The translations under genes and the position numbers were made by a program. Under the pieces are notes generated by a model, which saw only the letters and a list, made by a program, of their open reading frames with translations, made no database searches and had not been told where the DNA came from. A DNA stretch of 55,491 nt from Catajapyx aquilonaris (Eukaryota), in NCBI GenBank assembly GCA_000934665.2, contig JYFJ02002099.1, positions 124,001 through 179,491 of the forward strand. The letters are read 5' to 3'. Of the stretch, positions 21,044 through 36,700 are shown in pieces (within the stretch, counting starts at the first letter, position 1; each line of letters opens with the position of its first letter).

Positions 21044-21681
21044 TTTTATTTATTTATTTATTTAGTGTACCCTGCGAGGCCTCTGGCCTATGTGAGGGGA
21101 GACAACAGCAATTTAAATAAACAGCACTAATACATCAATTTTACAGTATGGCCTTCTTGCACATAGCTTGGAAGAATCTAAATAGTTCAAACATTTCCGT
21201 GCTGGTTAGATGGGTGAACATTAGGTGTGTATAATGTCTCGGGTACATATTGGGGTAAGGGAGAAACTTCTTCTTGATAGATTGAAAGACCGTACATTCA
21301 AACAGTAAATGGTACACTTCAAAGGGTTCATCTGCATTACAATAGGAGCATGGTATATCTGGGGTGAAGCAAATGAGGCTTGAGCCAATTCTTAATTTGG
21401 GTGACCCATGCCTCAAATTTATGGCCATCCGCTGTATTTGGAGCGGCAACTGTGGGTACTGCACTTCGAGACCGACAGACAGGTGTATGTCCCTGTAGTT
21501 CTCATATCGTTTGGACCCTAAGAGCCTGTCGACATCATTCTCGCGACAAGAAACGGAATAATCCCGGATTTTCTGGTGCCAGTCCAAGGATCCAACAGCA
21601 TTAACGTCCAGATCTAGTTTGTTCAAGAGTCTTTTCTGTCCCTGCGTCCATTTCGCTTCCGGATTTGACTGGACAAAATAC
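21044..21681 (-). mobile_element. 5'-truncated non-LTR retrotransposon (ORF2 C-terminus, possibly RTE-X-like)
   Basis: ORF 21141-21683 with CSYC-x8-H-x4-C knuckle; 3'UTR stem-loop AGGCC-AGA-GGCCT and (TAAA)n tail; perfect 16-bp TSD ACATCCCCTACATATT at 21028-21043 and 21682-21697. Confidence 0.9.
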
Positions 21682-22068
21682 ACATCCCCTACATATTACA
21701 ATAGCAGGCCAAGGAAATTACACAGGGGCTTAGAAGCCAAGTGCCGGACTCTACTCTCTACAACCCTGGTCAGTTCGAAAGAAAGGCTCAAAAAGCCCCT
21801 TTCCATTCTTGTGCCTATCACACCACCAGAAAACCATCCTAATCATCTAATCATTAGGTTCTACCAATCCATTAATGATGTCAGCAACAAAAAATTATGA
21901 TGCACATAAATCGCAAGCAATGAAATTCTGACATACAGGTAACAGCTTACATTTCAGTGCAATTTGATGGGTCTCTGCACTGGCACTGTCGCAGAAGGCT
22001 TTAGCCCAAACTACTACAGCCTCTACTACTTGGGATAACATTTACCTATCTAGAACTGAGCCCAACTC

Positions 22069-23201: not shown

Positions 23202-24401
23202 TCAGGAGGCAGAAGTTGATGCTTGTGAAGTTGTCTCCTGCTTCTTGTCATCGGTGTCGTTGGCTGCCTGTTCCGGTTCAACCAAATATGAATCCCATGT
23301 TTTCAGCCGCTTCTCCTTCTCCTCTGCTGTCTCTTCAATTCTGTATTTGGTCCTTCCATCCCATGTCTCTGCTTCAAGCTTAAGCCCTCCAAACCACCTC
23401 CCATGCAGAGCCTCTATGCAGGTATCTGCCTCCTCTGGTTCAGCATAGTACAACTGCACCACTCCCTCAGGATGTCGGTCATGCAATACCACCTTTTTGA
23501 GCTTCCCAAACTTTGTGCACTCTTCCCTGATGTCCTGTTTCAGTTCTAGAATCAGGGCGGCATCCTTCTCAATCTCACTCGGCCGAAATACATGCTTCAG
23601 AACTACTATACTCTCATGGCGACTTCGCTGGCCCCGCAAGCGGTCCGGCCTCCAGTCCAGCAGGCGCTCCTGAGATTTTTGGAACTTCTCCTTATCTCGG
23701 CGTTTCTTCTTACGTGGTCTCAAAGAAGGGTTGTACTCTCCTTTTGGTTTGAACTGGGCACGTTCTACATGTATAGTATGACCTCGAATGTCGCTTCCAT
23801 CCAAAATTTGTAGGGCAAGGGAGACTGACTCAACTCGGATATAAGTGCACCTCCCATCTCCCTTTGGCGTTCCCTGGTCATCAGTGTATATCTTCGCCTT
23901 AAGCTCGCCTGAGTCTGGGTCCTTAGCCACCAGCCCACACTTCTGTATCAGTTCCACAAACTCATCATGGGTCACATCCGGGGGAAGGCCGCTCACATAC
24001 ACATTCCGGTTCTGGGTCTCATCTACTTCAAACCATCCCGCTGGCTGAGGCTGTGGTATTCCTCCAGCTGCTTTCTTCTTCTTTTTGGCTGGACCTGGAT
24101 CCTCTGAAGGTGGGGCCACAGGCGAAGGATTGACGCTTCCATCTGCATGAAATCCATAGCTCAACTGGTAGCGTGCAAGGAATTCCTCGTCCACTTTGGG
24201 AAACCATGCCTTTTTTTCTGGATCCCACTGGAACATCGTCCCCTCTTGGTCCGTGTACATATATGCACCCGTCTCCGCATCGTAGGTGTATTGCTGCTCA
24301 GACGACGTCGGTTCGTCCCCTGGGCGTCCCTCATCAGGAATGTTGTCCAGGGGAGGTCCATGCGATTCTGAGGCAGCTTCTGACGACGAACACTCGGCCA
24401 T
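23202..24401 (-). CDS. HTATSF1: HIV Tat-specific factor 1 homolog (Tat-SF1/Cus2/Barricade; U2 snRNP-associated, RRM + UHM)
   Basis: FLARYQLSYGF, NRNVYVSGLP, GLVAKDP...KIYTDDQGTPKGDGRCTYIRVESVSLALQILDG, EECTKFG, LHGRWFGG; single uninterrupted 399-aa ORF. Confidence 0.95.
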   Translation of the reverse strand: MAECSSSEAASESHGPPLDNIPDEGRPGDEPTSSEQQYTYDAETGAYMYTDQEGTMFQWDPEKKAWFPKVDEEFLARYQLSYGFHADGSVNPSPVAPPSEDPGPAKKKKKAAGGIPQPQPAGWFEVDETQNRNVYVSGLPPDVTHDEFVELIQKCGLVAKDPDSGELKAKIYTDDQGTPKGDGRCTYIRVESVSLALQILDGSDIRGHTIHVERAQFKPKGEYNPSLRPRKKKRRDKEKFQKSQERLLDWRPDRLRGQRSRHESIVVLKHVFRPSEIEKDAALILELKQDIREECTKFGKLKKVVLHDRHPEGVVQLYYAEPEEADTCIEALHGRWFGGLKLEAETWDGRTKYRIEETAEEKEKRLKTWDSYLVEPEQAANDTDDKKQETTSQASTSAS

Positions 24402-24717
24402 TGTATGGGTCGATTATTCAACAGAACGTGGAACTAACGGCCACCACCATTTCTGAAGTTGGTCTGAAGTGCAACCGAAAATATTTGGCGATACTATGCC
24501 CTTATGAACACTAGCGCCGCCCTAGTGAGGAGAGAGTTCCTGTCAACAGATTGAAGAAGGAACTTCATCGGTGTTTGTTTTGTTCCCATTTTCTGTGGTT
24601 ATTGGAACAGGTACCGTAACTCTAGTTTAGAAAACTGTGGAACTGGTATTGCAGGACCAACATTTGCCATATTACATTTGTACAGAAATTAATAATTTAC
24701 TTGAAATTCATTCAGGT

Positions 24718-27609
24718 ATGGAGCATGCAGCCATGGATGTCCCGCCAGGATCAACTGACAATGGAGATGGGTCACCAGCAAAGAAGAAAAATTACAAGAA
24801 TGTGAAAAGGGTGGCCAAGGCGAAGCAGACGCAAGTGAAACCTGGTTGCTCAGAAAGTACCTGCAAAAAGAAGTGCGGCGCAAAAATTACGGAGGAATGG
24901 AGGCATGAGATTAACCGGCAGTTTTGGGCTATGAGTCTGTGCGAGAGGCAGGTTTTCATTTATGACTCCGTCAGCAACGTGCCTGTCAAGAGGAGGCGCA
25001 CCACATTTGGACCCAGTCGACGTCACAACTCGTTTGTGTACAACTTACGTGATGAGCATTGCGTCACTGTTCAAGTGTGCAAAACCTTTTTTCTAACGAC
25101 ACTAGGTTTTTCACCAGAGAATGGCGGTATAGTGAAAAGAGTCATGAAGAATTATGAGGATCCCTTGTTCGTTCCTAAGGAGGATCAGAGAGGAAAAGGT
25201 CCTAAAACGAATAAGTTAGACAGGGCTCCCATAGTGCAGCATATAGCCCATTACGTGCAGGAACATGCATCTTCTGGGCGCTACTTGCCTAGTGATGTTA
25301 CCGTTCTTGACATGGTCAGAGACTACAACATGCAACACAAGGATCGCCATGTCTCTTATGAGACTTACCGAAAGGTAGTTAAGGCCATGAACATTTCTTC
25401 TGCTAAATTGGGGCAAAATGAAAGCAAGATACATGCTACCGCTGAACATCTTGATGCTGAAATTCTTGATTCTACTAATTATTCTGAACATCCTGATTCT
25501 GAACATCCTAATTATTCTGAACATCCTGATTCTGAACATCCTAATTATTCTGAACATCCTGATTCTGAACATCCAAATTATTCTGAACATCCAAATTATT
25601 CTGAACATCCTGATTCTGAACATCTTGATGCTGGACCCGAGGAAGAGATCATGGAACCAGAATGTATATTAGAATGTGCAGAGGCTGAGCAAACCATTGA
25701 GACCATGTCAGAACCAGCCGTGCTTTTTACCAAAAAGTTGCTGACCAGGTATGGCTGCCATGTAGTTTAGGAAGGTTGTCTGTAAATCACATGATGCTGT
25801 TGGAAATGGAAGGTCTTGGCTGGGAGGGGGGGTGGGCGCCAGAGAATACCTGATCACATTGGGGAAGAGTACGTCTGCTAATGTGTCACATGATGTTTCT
25901 TGTGTGCAATACAGGGAGTTCCAAGTTCCAATTTTTAGTTATTGCTAATAGAGCCTGAAGAACGGTCTGTTAAGCAAAGAATAATGTGACATCACAACAG
26001 CCATGTTTTCTGATCATGCGCAGTAGTGTGCATGCAGAGCGATTTGGGGACATGATAGCCAGGTGAAGGCAGGCTGAATGTGATGTCATATGGTTCTTCT
26101 GTAATGGACTAGTTATTTTTTGTGGGTTGTTATGGTCCGATCCAGGTGCCCACTTACTCCCAGGTGGTCGAATATAGCTCAAGCGAAAATTCAAGTAACT
26201 AAAATGACCCACATACTTGGAATATACTGCCCAGCATAGAGTTAAACCTGTAATTTACATAGGGAATCACTCAATTCTGAAGCTTTACTGTAATAGACAA
26301 GTTTTATAACCCCAGAAAGCAGCTATTCCAAAGTAACTGATTTAAAATATACAGTTTAGAGCTTTAAAAAATTGCTTCAATTCAAACACCCTGTAAAACT
26401 GGCAGGGTCGTGAAGTTATCAGGCAATGAAGATGCAGGGGGTGTGACAGTTTCAAAGTCATTAATAGTTTAATTTTTAAAAATATCTGATACAGCCAGTG
26501 GACAGTTTTTCTAGGCAGTGTATCTGAGCAGTGATTGATATAAACTTACTGGGGGTTGCTTTAATGTTTGTAGTGGGTTTTGGCAAATGTGGGTACTTGA
26601 AATTCTGAGTGAACCTAAGTAACTGGTATTTCATGGTATAACAGGACTAACACATTGAATCTTGCTGTAATACATTTATACAGAAACTAATATAATTTAC
26701 TTGAAAATCAGGCATGTGACACCATCTACGTGGAGTTATCAGCCTGCAGCTATTGATGTCCCAGGACCAAGTTCTTCCTCAACTGACAAGATCGGAGGTG
26801 GGTCTCCAAAGAAGAAAAGTCGCAAGAATCTGTCCCTTCAGGAGAGGGTGACCAAGGAGAAGCGTACGCAAGTGAAACCTGGTTGCTCTGAAAGTACGTG
26901 CAAAAAGAGGTGCGGCACAAAAATAACAGAAGAATGTAGGCGGGTGATTAACCAGCAATTTTGGGCAATGAATCAGTGTCAGAGGCAGGTTTTCATCCAT
27001 GACTCCATCGACAATGTGCCCATCAAGAGGTCCACTACTTCTGGACCTAGTCGACGTCATCAATCGTTTGTGTACAATTTACGTGATGAGCAGTGTGTCA
27101 CTGTTCAAGTGTGCAAAACTTTTTTTCTAACGACACTAGGTTTTTCACCAGAGAATGGCAGTATAGTGAAAAGAGTCATGAAGAATTATGAGGATCCCTT
27201 GTTCATTCCTAAGGAGGACCAGAGAGGAAAAGCTCCTAAGCCCCAGCTTGACAGGACTCCCATAGTGCAGCATATAGTATCCTACCACCCTTCAATAATC
27301 CATTACGGGGGGGAGAATGCATCTTCTGGACCCTATTTGCCTAGTGATGTTACTGTTGCTGACATGGTCAAGGACTACAACATGCAACACAAGGATTGCC
27401 CTGTCTCATACGAGACGTACCGAAAGGTAGTTAAGGCTCTAAAAACAAGTGGTCCCACTACTCATCCTTCCCTCCTGGTCTTCCCTTCCTCCGACCTGTC
27501 CCCTGTTGTTTCCTTGCCTCTAACTTCCTGCAATCCCAGCCTGGAAGGGGGACATTCTGTCCCACCCTTCCTTGACAGTGGAGCTTCTCCTTCCCATTCC
27601 CCTGTTTAA
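24718..27609 (+). CDS. Transposase-derived protein with two tandem Sola-like N-terminal domains and no catalytic domain (~642 aa)
   Basis: Exons 24718-25748 and 26712-27609 join in phase 2 (AG|G). Each carries C..C.K.C...I..QFW, VCKTFFLTTLG, DQRGK, YLPSDVT, VSYETYRKVVK. Candidate 5'UTR donor at 24611; AATAAA at 27845. Confidence 0.7.
25476..25626 (+). repeat. Coding minisatellite encoding (NYSEHP-DSEHP)n
   Basis: Alternating 18- and 15-bp units aattattctgaacatcct / gattctgaacatcct; frame-preserving. Confidence 0.9.
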
Positions 27610-28360
27610 CATATGTACTTGTGGTTAGTTGGACCTAGAATATACATATGGTTTAGGTCCAGGAGGGTTATGCTGTATTGTTATGTGGACTTGTCGAAAC
27701 ATTTTTTGTCCACAATAGACAAATACCAAACATGTACCATATTGCACAGTGGCCTTATTATGTTACGTGCTACATATACAGAGAATCTGTAATGAATATT
27801 TCCTACCTGCACGATGTATTTTCTGCATGAAAAAAACAGGTTGCAATAAAACAAGCTGCAAACTTTGAAAAACCATTTAAAAACTGCTACTACTGGTTTG
27901 ATTCACAATTTCATGCCCAGGTACACTAGCTTTTTGAAGTGTCAATAGTCAGGAGATAACTTCTGTTTAGTGCCACTTGAACTGATTATTACATATGATG
28001 AGAAGTGAATACAGCTGTGTGTGACATCCTGACCACACCTAGATCATGACTGGTCCTCTCTGTAACTGCACCATTACGAAAATATCGAGCTAGAAACGTT
28101 GCTCACTAATCTTGCATTTTTAAAAGGATGGTCAACACATTTTCTTCAACAAGGACTCGTATGAAAAAATGACAGCTTCACTGGCAGTTAGGAAGATTGA
28201 TGGAAAAGGCCCTTTAAACCGATCTATTTTGAAATGGTCAGACAGTACATGCCTTCCAGCATATCCTTCAATATCATTGGTGGTGTACACATAGTGTGCC
28301 AACATACTACAGGCACATGCATCAATGGCAACTAACTTGTTCACAATGTCTCCTAAAAAA

Positions 28361-29992
28361 TTATTGGTCACAAGCAAACTCTTCCATCAAGGCAGCTCGA
28401 ATTTGAGTCCCGTTTGGCATATCATCTCCGTGGTCCACTTGGTCCCGCACCATTGAAGTACGTCCCAGGTGAATAGATGGTTTTGAAGTGTTTTCATTTT
28501 CCCAGCTGGTCCAATATTTTAAGTCTCGTTCCTCACAAATGTTGTTCAAACATACTGCCGCGGTAATTAGTTTTGGAACTTTTCCAAGTTTCAGCTCAGC
28601 ACACCTCAAGATCTGCTTCCAACGACCTTTTGTGCGTTCAAATAGGTTCTCAACTACACTTCTAGCCTGATTTAACCTACAATTAAAGTTTACTTGAGCT
28701 ACTGTCAAGGTCCCATTATCCACAAATGGCTTCATAAGCCATACTTCCAATGGAAATGACAAGTCCCCTAACAAGAGCAATGGAACCTCCACACCTTGAA
28801 TAACTTTCACTGTTGTTGGCAGTGCATTTCTCTCTGAAAGATGTTTGTACAAGCCTGTGCCTTTGAATGCAGCTGAGTTACTGCATCGACCAGGTATGCC
28901 TGCCTTTACGTAGCATGCTTTGGACTTCACATCGCTAACCACTAAAACCATGACAGACTGCCAACCTTGAGAATTGCAATATTCAGTGGTCTGGTTATCT
29001 GGTGATTGGATTTCAAAATGACAGGCACCAATTGCTCCTACAGCCATTGGAAATTGCCACTTCTGGTTAAAGGCTTCTGCCACATGATCTGCTTCCTGCC
29101 CACGAGGCCAGCTGATGTGTCGTGGAACCAGGACATTGTGAACAGCATCAATGAATCTCCTAAGTATGGTGTAAACTGTTGCCTTTCCCACACTGAATAG
29201 GGTAGCAGTTGCCTTGTACTCTGATGAAGATGCCATTGCTTTGAGAGCAATCGCCACTTGCTTGTCAACAGCCACAGCTTTCCTGAAATTTGTGTCCTTC
29301 AGATGGAGGTGTGGTTGAAGAGCATCACATATGTATTCAAATGTCTCTCGATCAACACGAAAGTGTGCCATGAAATCATCCTCTTCCAAACGTGGAACCT
29401 CTGTTTCCCACCATCCAGTATTTGACGCTTTCATCCAACCTTTTCTTAAAGGGACTCTGAAAAAAAAATATGCATGTTAATAAAACACGCTAATAAGCCA
29501 GTAAGAGCAAGAAATGCAAAAGCTACCACAATGAGAAAAAAAGGAGGTAGAAAATCTATAGGGCGTGCCGGATGTTTCACAAATTAAATTAGCAAGTTAA
29601 GAGATGTGCATAAAGTGAGTATTTCAGGAGTAAAAAGCAAGGTGTGGAAATTCACAAAGGTCACAACGATGCTGCAAGCAGAAGCTGAGCGGCAGCAGGA
29701 TGGTTGGAGTCCAGACCGATGCACTTTGGGCAGGTAAAAATATGTGATGAAAAGCATCCACCTCTAAGGCATTCACAACCGTTAATTGAATGTGCTTCCT
29801 TGGAGTTGCTGCAAATCCACCCTTGCACCACTTACGCCCCAAAAGGAAAAACACTTTCATTCGTGAAAAATCATTTGATCACCTTTCCATGGCCACTTCT
29901 TTCATGTACATTTGCAAAGCAGTCTTCATCTCTTCCCTTCTCCTCTTCTTCCTCTGTTGTAAATGGAGCAGGCCAGTCAACATCCTTTCCAT
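28361..29992 (-). CDS. PIF/Harbinger transposase-derived nuclease-like protein (HARBI1/ALP1-like, ~401 aa), first catalytic Asp lost
   Basis: Exons 29883-29992 and 28361-29456 (phase 2). FMAHFRVDRETF, VGAIGACH (canonical GAIDGTH), LLGDLSFPL, FNCRLNQARSVVENLFERTKGRW, AVCLNNICE. Confidence 0.88.
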
Positions 29993-30365
29993 CTGTTGTT
30001 TACTTGTGTGTAAGAGTTCTAGAACTGTATGTAAGTTTCAGAATTTAGCTCACATTCATAGTCTATTACCAGTATTTGGTCGAAATATCACTTTCTCACT
30101 ATTGCATAGGTAATGTTAGTGAAATTACAAGCCCTTTTTGCCTAAGTAATTAGAACTTAACATTGGCACGACCACTCATGTCCATCAGAAAAATTAAACT
30201 GTCCCATCTCTTTCTTACTTGCAATGAAACAATTTCAATAATAAATACTGCAGCTTCATTTTTTAGTGTATTTGAGAAATGTGATCAATTCATCAAAATC
30301 TAACCCTATAAATGAACAGAAAGTACCGAAGGGAGCCAAGAAACTGTGAGTCCCGTAACTGAGTA

Positions 30366-31883
30366 CTAAACATGATCTGACTTACTTTTTGGTACAGCAG
30401 GTACAGCAGGTGCTGCAATAAAGTTTGACAATGACTGTGCCACAATTTTCATTTGCTCGTTGCTCTCCTCTTGTAGGACACAAAATCGTTTCATGAGTTC
30501 ATGATCTGCCTGTTGCTCTTCTCTGTGTCCTTCTAAAATGGTTATCACTTTCTCTTGGAATGTTGTTATACTAGAACTGTCTCTTCGGTGCTTTTGCTGC
30601 AAACTCTCTGAAAAATTTCAAGATAATCAGCAGATGGCATTCTATCCTGCTAATAGACAAATCCAGCCTAGGAAAGTCAAAGCAAGGCAAACTTAACCTT
30701 TCATTAGAGGTAACAAGTAGTTTTTACCACTTATTACATACCATCAAGACTTCCTTGTTAGATAATTTCCATAATAAATTCAGGTTTCTATCTGTTACTA
30801 GAGCTTAGGACACTAATGGGCTAGATTTATCACTTGAAACTCTTGTATTTTTGCATGAATGGCATGTAAGCACCATCTCTCATTACTTGACATTTATTTA
30901 ATCTTCATTATAAACAACTAACCACTACCTTTAAACAAGGGTGCCGACTGCTCACTACTTCCAGCGCATCTCGCACCTGACTCTTGAGAACAGGTTGTTC
31001 CTTCATCACTCTCAGAAGTAGGTCCAGTCTCAATATTGTCTGTGTCATCTGGGGAAATCAGTGTCTCACATGTGCCACTGGTATCAGGATTGCAGATGGG
31101 TGCAGCAGCCAAGATATCATGGATCTAAAAGTAGTGATGTCAGTCATTTACGAATAATACAAATCATGCTGAATATATTGGTCATTCATGTTGTTGATGT
31201 CTGGCCCAACACAATATGCTCAAAACAATATTGGTAAGGTCTTGAATTTTCTTGTATGTTCTATATCGTGCAATATGTTGGAACAACATTTATAAATAAT
31301 TTTTACTTTCTAATTAGTATATTTTTGCAGGTGACGGTTCACTATAACTATACCACATCTCATACCAAATGCCAGTATGGCCACCACATGTGCTTTTCAT
31401 AAAATCAGGTCACCCTCTTTTTTAGCACTATTTGTGGCATAATGCGATAACAATCACAGTGTCAATAACATTAAACAATGACTATTAATCCCTTACCACT
31501 GCATAATATCTCCAGGTGGGAGTTGACGTTTCGCTCACTGTCAGCTGATTACGTTGATAGGTGGCTTTGAGATTCTGGATCTTCTTTTGGTACTGCACAC
31601 GAGATCGAGTGTAACCCAACTCCATCATGGCATTTGAAATGTTTGAAAAAATATCCTTCTTCAGAGTCATGGAGTCGAATTTGTTAATATTCTCCCTCCA
31701 TAGTGATATGAGGTCTTCTACCTCTTTTCTTGGCCAGCGTCTCCTTTCATTGAGGTGCTCTTCAGCAGTGAGGTTGACAAGTTCATTCAAATCATCGCCA
31801 TCTGTTTCCGGAGACGATAAAATCATCGCCAAGTCCATGTCTGCATCATCCAAGTCTGACATTGTTCCAGTAATGTCTGTCAT
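30366..31883 (-). CDS. Myb/SANT-like (trihelix, MSANTD type) DNA-binding protein, probable Harbinger second protein (~276 aa)
   Basis: WPRKEVEDLISLW...IFSNISNAMMELGYTRSRVQYQKKIQNLKATYQR...WRYYAV|IHDIL. Exons 31497-31883, 30923-31124, 30366-30607 total 831 nt in frame; coiled-coil-like C-terminus. Confidence 0.82.
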
Positions 31884-33747
31884 GTTGATCCTGCTGCACA
31901 CCTAGCAGATCCTTCACTTCTCTAACAATAAGTATGGAGCCTGCACCTACTTCCAAGCTACTACTCCGCTCTTTTACTGGAGAACTTTGGTGGTATTTTA
32001 TGCTTCCTATCTGCACACCCTCAATACTCTTCGGCTCTCCATGCACCAAATCATCATCAAATGTAGTGCAGGTAAAATCAGCTCAACAGTACGAAAGGAG
32101 GACGCTCAGCCACCACATTCTTCCGCAACTGTCACCAGCAACGACCTGTTACGGAAATATAAATGAAAAGGGTCAACACCTGGTAAACTATTTGTAATAA
32201 GGAATTCCCATGTGTGTATAGGTGCCAAATGTTCAATACAAATTAGCAAGGGCTAATAACTGAAATTAGTCAATATTTGCCCAGTGAATGAAGCGAATTA
32301 GTCCGTCTGTTATCTAACAATATTGCTTGTAATAAAATGAATTCTCAAGGAGAGCTACAGGAAAAACAGTTGACGTTACATTACTTGCATATTTTCGCAT
32401 AAAACTTTCATAACATTACATAAACCAGATGCTAAATCAAGTTGACAGCACTGCCATGTAATCCCTTGTAATTGCTAACCGTGTGCTAACAGTCGCTCCC
32501 AAAATTGACCCGTCATTACACAAGCACACTTCCTGCACACTGCAACCTTACCATACCCGGTAAATTACCATTATCCTTAAATTAAACCGAATTAATGCGA
32601 TCACATGTTGTCATCGATTGGCTTTTGGCAACTTGTTTGGCAAGAAAAAAATAGTTATCGCTGTATGGCATCACACCATGAACCGTGTTAAAGCCTTGGT
32701 TAAAGCAGATAAGATAACGGCCATTATTCATGACTCATGAGTGTCCTAAATTACAACCAAAAATATGATTGCTTCTCATATGACCGCTGATTAACACGCG
32801 ATAATTAAAGAAACGATAATGACAAGTAGCTATTTATAACCGCTTTGTCTCATAAGCAGCTTGTGGAAAACAAAAGCGTGTAGCACCGCGCATTTTTTTT
32901 TTCTTCCCCCGCTCTAAATGGACGGCTGTGATTGGTTGATCTGATGGCAACCCTGAGGCTGTGTGGCATGGAGGCCAACAGCAGGAGATAAATATTTCCC
33001 CACGAGACTACTGCAGGCAGAGAGAGGCTGGAGAAGTGGGAAAGAGTTCCGGGCACAGATGCGACGCAGGAGGAAGCAACGGTGCACCTGAGGAGAGGAC
33101 TAGCATCAGCCAGGGTAAATTGCATTGAACAGTACGCTGCCGTGGGAAGGACAGTGCAGCTGCATGCTGACACACAATATTATTGTGGGGTTTGGACTGA
33201 TTTGATGTGTGCCGCACTGGAAAGAAACATACATGCAGTGCGTTTTCTGGCAAAGCATGTTGTGGCTCAGCCGCATATTTTGGATGTGGAATCATACGGC
33301 TGCATTTTTTTTTTCCTAAAGTGAGACGAGGTGTCGAGAGGCTTTGACTGCAAGAGAGGGGGAGAGTACGCACTAACAACATTTTTCACGTCGCATGCTT
33401 AGTACACACTTTGCTAATTAATTACACACACAAAATGTTGGAGGGTGCTGCAAGTGTGCCACATTTTCCGGATCGACATCAGCCACTCACCTCTAATACA
33501 GTCATTGAACTGCAAATGCCACATGTAAACTCCAGAGCCAGTTATTGACCACAGGTTTACACCTGCTGCTAATAGAAAATGCAGGCAGCTGGCCTAACTA
33601 AAGAGAACTACTTATTTATTTTATTATCCCATGCTCAAGCTGTTGGCTTGTTTGGCGGGACTAAAGAGAACTATTGCATCTGTTTGTATGAATAGTGTTT
33701 TAACAATGCATAACATGTTTTTCTCCGCCTGCCTAGGTAACGAGTGG

Positions 33748-36700
33748 ATGGCAGCCTGCATTTTCGCCATGAGGGAAGTTCGGGTCATGTACTTGCTTCT
33801 ATGCTTCTTCACCCTGCTGGCTGGTAAGTGGCATCAGGTTCATACATTGCAAGTTACGTGTTGGTAAATTTGTAAGGCAAGCTGTCCTTCATTGAGCAAC
33901 ACTTTCGTTGCCACGTATTAAGATGAGTAAAGTGTCTTGCAATTATTGCATAATGTGTTGGGTCATAGTGGCCTTGGAGAAATGCTATATTTTTACCTTG
34001 TGCTGTTTTTTTCCTTATCCAGTTCTGCTCACATACCAAAGCTTGGTCCGGTCTGAGTTTCATGAAATAGCATCTCACCCTTCTCCTTCTTCGTTGGATG
34101 AAGACGGGAGAGAGATTATAATGCAAGTTGCCAAGCTAGAGCAAGAAGTGAAGGATAGAGGTGAAGAAAAAGTTACTGCAACTAAAAAGATTACCATGGT
34201 GGAAGCGGAGCAGCGCATCCATGAGTTAGAGGAAAGACTGCAGGAACTAGAAGCACGGGTTCCAAAGAGATTTCCAGATGTCAAGTTTTTGAACTACAGG
34301 CAGAGGAAACGAGTTCTGGTAGAGACGCTTAATGCTTGCGATTGCTTGAGCATCTAAATTAATCTGTCTGTTCAGGTTACAGGAGGAGCTGGTTTTGTAG
34401 GCTCTCACCTAGTGGACCGACTGATGCTGGAGGGACATGAGCTGATTGTGGCAGACAACTTCTTCACTGGCCGCAAGCGTAACTTGGAGCACTGGGTGGG
34501 CCATGAGAATTTTGAGCTTCTTCACCATGACATAGTCAATCCACTCTACATAGAGGTGGACGAAATATACCACCTTGCCTCACCTGCAAGTCCACCACAC
34601 TACATGTTCAACCCTGTCAAGACCATTAAGACCAATACACTTGGAACCATCAACATGCTGGGTTAGGACCTTATGGTTTTAAAAATAATAAGTTGTAACC
34701 AAACAAAGCGAAGCCAAATTGCAAAGAATTAAGTGTGCAACATTTTCTGTCAATCTGTCTGGCCCAAAGCACCTTACTTAAATGTGCTGAGTCATTTTTC
34801 CGGCAGAGCTGCAGAAGCGCTAGAAATGTATCCCACATTTGTTAACCTGAAAGATTCAAACTCATATCCGCAATATCTTACCATTTTGCTGTACCTGGGC
34901 AGTGAATTTCTGTGGGGTCTGGTAAAGATTGCTGCCACTACATTTATTTCTTACTTAGCAAGACGTAAATTTTAATAATGAACCTCAGGGGCCACGCAAA
35001 CCCAAAAACTGTGATGAAATTAATTACAAAAAAACCATGGTGTCATTTAAAATCGTTTATCATGGCTTGCAGATGTGCAATTTTTTTGTGCATTTTTGAA
35101 TCAAGGAATTTTTAAAGCCTTTTTACATTAATTGAATTGAATTTTTTTATAGCACATTGGACTGAGTTCTAAATAAACAATACTATCACATTTTCGTTTA
35201 TTAATAAATAACACAGTTAAATGTGGTACAGGAAACTATCAATTTCTGAAAAAATCCACTAGCCATAAATATTTTTAAATTCCGTGGTAGATTTTTTGTA
35301 ATTAACTTCAATACAGTTTTTGGGTTTGTGTGGCCCCTGAGGTTCATTATCAACATTTACATCCCTCTTGGGGCATGGCCGAATAATTATGGGTTTGGGC
35401 AAGTAGTATCACATGATGCAGTTGCAATATCAGTGCATCTCATGTTAGGGATTATTATCTGAATGCTCATTTGTGCCTGCATCTGTTGATCAAGCCAAAG
35501 CATGCCTACATGTACTTACAATAAGTGGCCCGGCCTAACTTCGATCCTACGACATCGTTTTGTTTACCAATTCCTAGTCAATGGAAATCTGTCAAACGCA
35601 CCTTTGGAACCACCTACTTTTCAAGTTTCCATAGATATGACCTACACAACAATAAGAGTAAAACTCTTAATTGTTGTATGAGGGCATTTCTTCGGAAACT
35701 TGAAAAGTAGGAAGTTCCAGAGTTGTGTTCGGCACATTTCGTTGACTAAGCACTGGCAGGCACTGGTAAACAAAACGATGACATAGGATCGAAGTTAGGC
35801 TGGGGTGCCAATACATGAATGATAAAAAGTTTTTTTTTGGTAAAGGGCTACGTTCATTTCCCCCAATTAAATGTGTTTTATACCTCTCTTTGCACAGGAT
35901 TGGCGAAACGTGTGGGGGCAAGAGTACTTATTGCAAGCACTTCAGAGGTGTATGGTGATCCTGAAGTGCATCCACAACCAGAGACCTACTGGGGGCATGT
36001 CAATCCAATTGGTCAGTATTCTGAAGGTACTGCAATCATGACGCGGTTTCTAACAAGTGTGTTTCATAAGTTCAGGACCCAGAGCTTGCTACGACGAGGG
36101 AAAGCGTGTCGCAGAAACTTTGAGCTATGCATATGCAAAGCAAGAACATGTGGAGGTCAGAGTTGCACGCATTTTCAACACGTATGGTCCAAGGATGCAC
36201 ATGAACGATGGCCGAGTCGTCTCCAATTTTATCCTACAAGCTTTACAAAAGCAGCCAATTACTGTAAGTTACTTTTGAACTGCTAATGACTATCTGCAGT
36301 TAGAATTAAAATAACAGAGAATTCATTTGCCGTTTGACAGATTTATGGACATGGACAGCAGACTAGATCTTTCCAGTATGTGTCGGATTTGGTGGAAGGA
36401 CTCATTCTGCTCATGGGATCAAACTGCTCCCTGCCGGTCAATTTGGGAAATCCTGAGGAGCACACTATTGAAGGTACCAATTTTGAAACACAGGGAAAAT
36501 AACATGCATGAAAAACTTCAATTTTGATTTCAGAGTTTGCAACCCTTATACGTGACCTTGTGGGTGGAGAGAGTCGCATTGAACACAAACCAGCAGTGGA
36601 AGATGACCCGCAAAAGAGGCGCCCAGACATAACCCGGGCTAAGGAGTGCTTTGGATGGGAGCCGCAGGTCAAGCTCCAAACAGGACTCGTGAAGACTGTC

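Follow-up and report, generated by a model that had tools for sequence, protein, structure and literature searches.

The stretch of DNA analysed here (the window) comprises 55,491 nt of Catajapyx aquilonaris (assembly GCA_000934665.2, contig JYFJ02002099.1, positions 124,001 to 179,491 of the forward strand). On its minus strand, at 28361–31883, it carries a Myb/SANT-like gene upstream and a DDE_Tnp_4 gene of the PIF/Harbinger type downstream. This arrangement raises the question of whether the pair is a mobile element, a relic of one, or a two-gene unit retained by the host. In our assessment the pair is best explained as an immobilized, expressed, single-copy and catalytically disabled Harbinger pair under continued selection, i.e. 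a co-domesticated pair, and we assign this explanation a probability of roughly 0.55. The pair derives from one PIF/Harbinger insertion and was kept in cis.

Both genes have an open frame when spliced at GT-AG introns, and all splice sites (6/6) were intact in the sequence reading. The Myb gene (31883–30366, minus strand) encodes 274 amino acids in three exons. Its first exon (31497..31883) begins with the ATG at 31883–31881, 31883 being the A, and ends at the donor GTAAGG after 31497; the frame remains open across the predicted GT..AG intron 1 (31125..31496). Exon 2 (30929..31124), an acidic Ser/Thr-rich linker, is followed by GT..AG intron 2 (30608..30928) and by exon 3 (30366..30607), which is coding from 30607 to 30369 and closes with the stop codon at 30368–30366. 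A spacer of 373 nt (29993..30365, GC content 0.34) separates the Myb stop from the nuclease ATG on the same strand and includes the 5′ untranslated region of the nuclease gene (at least 29993–30024). The nuclease gene (29992–28361, minus strand) encodes 401 amino acids in two exons: exon 1 (29883..29992, ATG at 29992–29990) and, after a GT..AG intron (29457..29882), exon 2 (28361..29456), with coding sequence 29456–28364 and stop codon 28363–28361, 28361 being the first base of that codon in forward numbering. The 3′ untranslated region extends at least over 28145..28360. The coordinates and the frames of 401 and 274 amino acids fit the initial annotation, which had described a Harbinger-type pair side by side on one strand with intact spliced open reading frames (ORFs) and had named HTATSF1 and UXS1 as the flanking genes. 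Both flanks were recovered, HTATSF1 with E 4.7e-103 to human HIV Tat-specific factor 1 and UXS1 with a match of E 1.9e-54. The introns of the pair are no argument for or against co-domestication. A fusion or read-through of the Myb and nuclease genes was considered and rejected: a consensus-like donor (AAAA/GTAAGT) lies 18 nt before the Myb stop, and a splice from it to any of the AG sites ahead of the nuclease ATG would break the frame.

Both genes are transcribed and spliced, as observed in the single run X5. This run stems from a different sample and study than the runs that probably underlie the assembly, and the records do not state its type. X5 was read as RNA because five GT..AG introns of UXS1 are missing from its contigs but present in the DNA runs X1 and X4. 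RNA junctions had been suggested as a check on the pair, and 2/3 of the predicted introns were joined in X5 exactly as predicted. The joint 29456/29883 skips the 426 nt of the nuclease intron and is absent from X1 and X4, and the joint 30607/30929, found in X5 only, skips the 321 nt of Myb intron 2; both introns read CT..AC on the plus strand. X5 contig no. 21 spans 31125–30929 and joins 30607, and an RNA-type contig continues into Myb exon 3, to 30507. Contig no. 20 reaches 30024 in the spacer, and contig no. 19 covers 28145–28772 at the 3′ end of the nuclease gene. The join of Myb exons 1 and 2 is a prediction; X5 contigs leave Myb exon 1 and 31212–33631 uncovered, which is a hole in the contigs and not evidence.

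By descent the nuclease gene belongs to the PIF/Harbinger transposase superfamily. The protein matched the Pfam family DDE_Tnp_4 with E 3.5e-22 and 79.2 bits against a cut-off of 24.8, and 10,789 relatives at E≤1e-3 were retrieved from a library of 1.84 billion proteins; a word-index protein search gave 1 match. Exon 2 was modelled with AlphaFold2 (AF2) from an alignment with 24 relatives, at a predicted local distance difference test score (pLDDT) of 90.5 and a predicted template modelling score (pTM) of 0.90. Compared with structures of DDE transposases, the model gave Z 9.4 for piggyBac (244 residues aligned, root mean square deviation 5.2), 9.1 for Tn5, 8.2 for Tn4430 TnpA and 7.5 for ISCth4. 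Retroviral integrase cores followed with Z 5–6, and sigma region-4-like helix-turn-helix (HTH) domains with Z 4–5. Foldseek yielded no match of the model in the PDB at E≤0.001, and a sequence search of the PDB yielded 0 matches. According to the Pfam match and the model, exon 2 carries an HTH and a DDE_Tnp_4 core, and the nuclease-derived protein is predicted to keep its N-terminal HTH and RNase H-like catalytic fold. Residues 14–19 of the protein form a basic patch, RKKRRR, that resembles a nuclear localization signal (NLS). It is the only such patch of the pair.

The core motifs of the nuclease read GAIGACH, with the first Asp replaced by Gly, LLLGD, VVENLF and YCNSQG. The initial annotation had cited the first and the last of these, together with a retained LGD and final Glu, and all were read in the sequence as stated. 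The catalytic triad is G-D-E, with the kept Asp codon at 28765–28763 and the kept Glu codon at 28651–28649. The lost Asp corresponds to residue 143 of exon 2 and to residue 180 of the whole protein. Its position, as placed by alignment and read contigs, is taken by the Gly codon GGT (29027..29029), one transition from GAT. No other letter occurs here in RNA-type X5 contig no. 20 or in the X1 and X4 DNA contigs; because these contigs agree, the Gly is not an assembly error. Calling the triad degenerate was correct as to the first Asp and too strong as to its extent, since 1/3 of the residues is changed, and by a single base. The model places the Gly on strand 138–148, the kept Asp just past strand 227–229, and the Glu within helix 252–278, as would be expected of an RNase H-like fold. 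The D295A mutation of the DDE triad lowered excision by a Ping/Pong transposase about 150-fold (PMC2836001). From the lost Asp and this parallel, we infer that the nuclease-derived protein would be unable to cut DNA. Of 24 aligned relatives, 20 carry D in the first-Asp column, three G and one S; of the best 150 representatives, 117 carry D, 16 G and 17 another residue. The second Asp was D in 131/150 and the Glu was E in 120/150 of these representatives, and 98/150 kept the full D-D-E.

At 55% identity, P0001 is the closest representative among the 1.84 billion proteins and has an intact DDE triad. It is followed by P0002 (50%), whose G-D-E triad matches that of the nuclease studied here. Both come from contigs of about 1.4 kb. 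The next matches were proteins of the mite Oppia nitens (42%) and of the springtail Orchesella cincta (37%), the latter labelled 'putative nuclease HARBI1'; this is an annotation name and not evidence of orthology. Because the closest representative is only 55% identical, no source family is in sight. In the trees, which include neither the named insect PIF-like genes (PLGs) nor vertebrate HARBI1, the nuclease paired with P0001 and left P0002 outside. Supports were 94 and 96 in a quick IQ-TREE run with 46 rows, 92/90 and 90/92 in a careful tree with 17 rows, and 87 and 99 in a FastTree run with 151 rows. The end branch of the nuclease was 0.72–0.79, compared with 0.29–0.33 for P0001. An Asp loss shared with P0002 was considered as well. 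The best trees favour the pairing with P0001 (support 94, 92/90 and 87), and a forced grouping of the nuclease with P0002 was not rejected (approximately unbiased test, p 0.159). The trees thus leave room for either one or two losses of the first Asp.

The substitution pattern was analysed in 42 conserved columns, taken as those with a conservation of 80% or more in the triad-intact set of representatives. The nuclease kept 28/42 of them (0.667). P0001 kept 37/42 and P0002 34/42; the median was 0.905 in triad-intact representatives (n=96, 5th percentile 0.81) and 0.77 in triad-broken ones (n=46, 5th percentile 0.667). With P0003 as outgroup, 34 nuclease-specific and 25 P0001-specific changes were counted over all columns (p 0.30); for the 42 conserved ones the respective counts were 9 and 0 (Fisher p 0.007). 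Four outgroups gave 30 versus 21 changes overall and 8 versus 0 at conserved columns (p 0.015). Rates in the other columns were alike, 0.093–0.12 for the nuclease and 0.093–0.095 for P0001. The nine changes, in exon-2 numbering, are L74M, G88S, D143G, G144A, K163Q, D193N, A233S, G273E and R280K, and 5/9 are no more than 20 residues away from a triad residue. A change of function is favoured over plain decay because of the 9 versus 0 changes at conserved columns together with like rates elsewhere. Loss of constraint in the core, with the rest of the nuclease and both frames kept, would fit a repurposed transposase and not a pseudogene. Persistence of the frames was simulated in 400 runs of substitution-only drift, with indels and splice sites uncounted. 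At 5, 10, 16 and 30% amino acid divergence, the nuclease frame stayed open in 25%, 6.5%, 1.75% and 0% of neutral simulations, and the Myb frame in 40%, 15.5%, 6.75% and 0%.

With respect to mobility, the search for inverted repeats in 26000–34500 returned 28 pairs, none of which convincingly brackets the gene pair. A scan of both flanks for 13-mer arms with up to 2 mismatches found 21 pairs, compared with 5–20 in 20 shuffles. Arm pairs with equal 3-bp flanks numbered 1 (ATA) versus 0–1 in shuffles, and those with a TWA-type flank 0. Terminal inverted repeats (TIRs) or a target-site duplication (TSD) beyond chance are therefore not present around the pair; the inverted-repeat search and the shuffled 13-mer scan agree on this point, as had been claimed before. 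The gene pair lies on one DNA contig of 7,751 nt (27175–34925) with a word depth, which is no copy number, of 34.4, and the neighbouring contigs have depths of 36.0 and 35.9. Summed at ≥90% likeness, the depth over the pair was 34.4–35.8. For contrast, repeats in the same 14.5 kb reached 345 (25888–26371) and about 6,000 (34600–35567). No second near-identical copy was present at ≥90% likeness in the read contigs, and no protein look-alike of the pair was found among 533 windows of this genome. The initial annotation had named genome copy number as a check, and the read contigs showed unique depth and no second copy at that likeness. With its G-D-E triad, no TIR/TSD above shuffles and unique depth in the read contigs, the pair is very probably immobilized and not an active mobile element.

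Exon 1 of the Myb gene matched the Pfam families Myb_DNA-bind_4 (E 6.2e-15) and MADF (E 8.9e-5), and its nearest protein-atlas clusters were Myb_DNA-bind_4, at 0.88. The N-terminal tail is acidic, with 13 D/E and 0 K/R in residues 1–45, and precedes a Myb/SANT-like trihelix domain at residues 46–129. A single-sequence model of modest pLDDT (63.9) places helices at 52–66, 72–91 and 95–117. Exon 2 contributes 66 residues, of which 13 are D/E and 17 S/T, and exon 3 a C-terminal region of 79 residues; neither exon matched a Pfam family. No NLS-like patch is present in the Myb protein. A word-index search with exon 1 returned no relatives at E≤1e-3 (100 longer candidates; 3 of like length). Myb partners evolve fast, and for this reason the missing relatives say little. 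In Ping Myb, NAIF1, HDP2 and ALP2 the nuclease is bound via the C-terminal part of the Myb protein (PMC7282668), and by analogy the exon-3 region is the candidate nuclease-binding part here.

From these features a mechanism can be proposed. The Myb protein would read DNA through its trihelix domain, which would choose the sites, and its exon-3 C-terminal region would hold the nuclease-derived protein in the manner of Ping, NAIF1, HDP2 and ALP2. Instead of cutting, the nuclease-derived partner would act as an adaptor or scaffold. Entry of the complex into the nucleus may depend on the RKKRRR patch of this partner, a role proposed because the Myb protein is without such a patch. A chromatin or transcription role of the pair is suggested by analogy only. 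A much wider proposal is a long shot. [quoted passage not shown] Through the Myb protein the complexes would still recognize Harbinger or MITE ends, or related sites, and would there prevent cutting or bring in silencing or anti-silencing factors, in a recurrent parallel taming of one element type within one lineage.

The most serious competitor of co-domestication is an undecayed relic. On this account a lone Harbinger copy, having shed its ends and one residue of the triad, would still be expressed from promoters of its own, without selection by the host, and decay would follow in time. We consider this distinctly less probable, though far from negligible. The triad is one base away from DDE, no orthologue is known from the protein searches, and plain copies of transposable elements (TEs) are also transcribed and spliced. 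The interval between HTATSF1 and UXS1 also houses two other TE-like ORFs and high-copy repeats, and the GC content at third codon positions (GC3) of the pair (0.41–0.42) is like that of these neighbouring ORFs (0.40–0.47), unlike that of ten host exon stretches (0.52–0.63). Against a relic, no copy at ≥90% likeness was seen in the read contigs and no protein look-alike in the 533 windows, so the family has not recently been active here. The 9/42 changes at conserved columns (21%), if neutral, would imply a divergence at which the nuclease frame was open in about 1–2% of simulations, and both frames would be open together far more rarely. The non-conserved columns also evolved no faster than in the triad-intact P0001. 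A still mobile, autonomous Harbinger with short, undetected ends and a transposase that works despite the Gly is highly improbable. PIF TIRs are short, about 15 bp (PMC9710019), and both genes are whole and expressed, but no TIR/TSD stood out above the shuffles and the pair sits on a single contig at unique depth. Moreover, all 98 representatives of the intact class, which also keep the other two residues, carry D at the first triad position, a DDE mutant was about 150-fold weaker (PMC2836001), and other core motifs are altered too (YCNSQG, PGRCSNS and ENLFERTK). It is also unlikely that only one gene, Myb or nuclease, serves the host with its neighbour as a passenger. Transposase-only domestications have been described in insects (PMC9710019), and the Myb protein has no detectable relative, which would suit this explanation; both frames and 6/6 splice sites are intact, however, and RNA joins occur in both genes.

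Several points weigh against co-domestication as such. A broken triad alone is common in the family and proves nothing, the full triad being wanting in 52/150 representatives, and the loss is a single GAT to GGT transition that could be recent. The overall relative-rate excess of the nuclease is not significant. The contrast at conserved columns weakened when the triad-broken P0002 served as outgroup (40 versus 29 changes overall, 6 versus 2 at conserved columns, Fisher p 0.45); parsimony counting captures too few of the changes in variable columns, and the species compared may evolve at different rates. The low GC3 speaks against a very old residence, or it may reflect low expression. The unique depth comes from runs that are possibly the assembly's own source, and copies of less than 90% likeness would escape it. 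Selection on the pair is what we infer from relative rates and open frames. Co-domestication nevertheless remains our preferred explanation. The initial annotation had proposed an independent arthropod co-domestication, kept in cis and acting as a non-cutting complex. The one insertion, the arrangement in cis, the lack of ends, expression, splicing and a triad that would not cut are all in line with this proposal; its novelty was not supported, as four adjacent PIF/MADF pairs have already been described in insects (PMC9710019).

These adjacent co-domesticated pairs are DPLG7/DPM7 in Drosophila, APLG1/APM1 and APLG2/APM2 in Anopheles, and LPLG2/LPM2 in Lepidoptera (PMC9710019). The features used there for PIF co-domestication, namely intact frames, no TE hallmarks, an adjacent Myb/MADF gene, single copy and expression, are also found in the pair studied here. 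As described in that source, the insect pairs are likewise adjacent genes of one insertion, 97–179 bp apart compared with 373 nt here, with introns, no TIR/TSD and no source element left. An NLS-like patch in one partner only is a further likeness, since only one partner of the insect pairs had a predicted NLS in 33/42 species (PMC9710019). The insect cases differ in that they rest on orthologues, conserved synteny and dN/dS of 0.07–0.52 (PMC9710019). Within the trees described above, the nuclease groups with proteins of transcript contigs and with mite and springtail proteins. Among top literature matches none dealt with such pairs in non-insect arthropods, which is no proof of absence.

Outside the insects, HARBI1/NAIF1 are also nuclease-derived and Myb-like-derived host genes whose products bind each other (PMC9710019, PMC4671723). 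They differ in that the genes of that vertebrate pair are not neighbours. HARBI1 keeps its DDE triad. The plant pairs ALP1/ALP2 and HDP1/HDP2 resemble the pair here in a broken-triad nuclease partner (ALP1) bound by a Myb-derived C-terminal part (PMC7282668, PMC5339849). ALP1 has lost two triad residues (it reads DGA) and works as a non-cutting accessory of Polycomb repressive complex 2 (PRC2) (PMC4671723), whereas here the nuclease has lost one, and the Myb domain retains part of its aromatic residues. The plant pairs also differ in being unlinked and of known biochemistry, ALP1/ALP2 acting with PRC2 and HDP1/HDP2 with a histone acetyltransferase complex. Active PIF/Harbinger elements (Ping/Pong, Harbinger3_DR) share the two-gene layout, the DDE_Tnp_4 core and the trihelix Myb partner; the pair here differs from them in having no TIRs, no TSD, one copy and a lost first Asp.

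Several features were observed around the pair. Between HTATSF1 and the nuclease gene stand two tandem paralogous frames on the plus strand, 24631–25770 (379 amino acids) and 26671–27609 (312 amino acids), which are 69% identical over 262 amino acids and match no Pfam family. Their protein-atlas neighbours are arthropod 'hypothetical protein' clusters at 0.94–0.95, and the nearest cluster with a family is DUF7869 at 0.81. An RNA-type contig lies over 26996–27836, and the GC3 of these frames is the 0.40–0.47 given above. Both frames may be pieces of a different gene family of TE origin. Inside the first of them, at 25500–25649, a 15/18-nt tandem repeat encodes a repeated SEHP(D/N)Y-like peptide. 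In a UXS1 intron, 3 kb from the pair, a MITE-like element was found at 34600–35567, with 99-nt inverted arms (34962–35060 and 35265–35363) that are 82% complementary. It is among the most abundant repeats of the genome because its word depth is about 6,000 compared with 35 for unique sequence (about 170 times). Beside it, at 35529–35804, are two nested inverted repeats (47 nt, 89%; 60 nt, 80%). At 25888–26371 lies a second repeat, with a depth some 10 times that of unique DNA. Since a DNA contig connects 26176 to 35553 across a stretch of 31 other letters, portions of this second repeat and of the UXS1-intron repeat adjoin elsewhere in the genome. The HTATSF1 homologue (23205–24413, minus strand) is one uninterrupted frame of 403 codons, covered without a join by an RNA-type contig (23106–24391), which makes it poor in introns compared with the intron-rich genes around it. 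An open frame of 184 amino acids (21141–21695, minus strand), located between HTATSF1 and SMC4-like exons, gave no Pfam match.

The pair studied here is probably a further example of a kind described before in insects, vertebrates and plants; its domestication is likely and unproven. If orthologues under purifying selection exist, it would be one more case, probably outside the studied insect orders, of the general tendency for both genes of a Harbinger element to be tamed together. The DDE-intact relative at 55% identity offers a clean contrast for the surfaces that are kept when catalysis is lost. The pair alone changes no concept; several such pairs per genome would permit a within-genome comparison of independent domestications.

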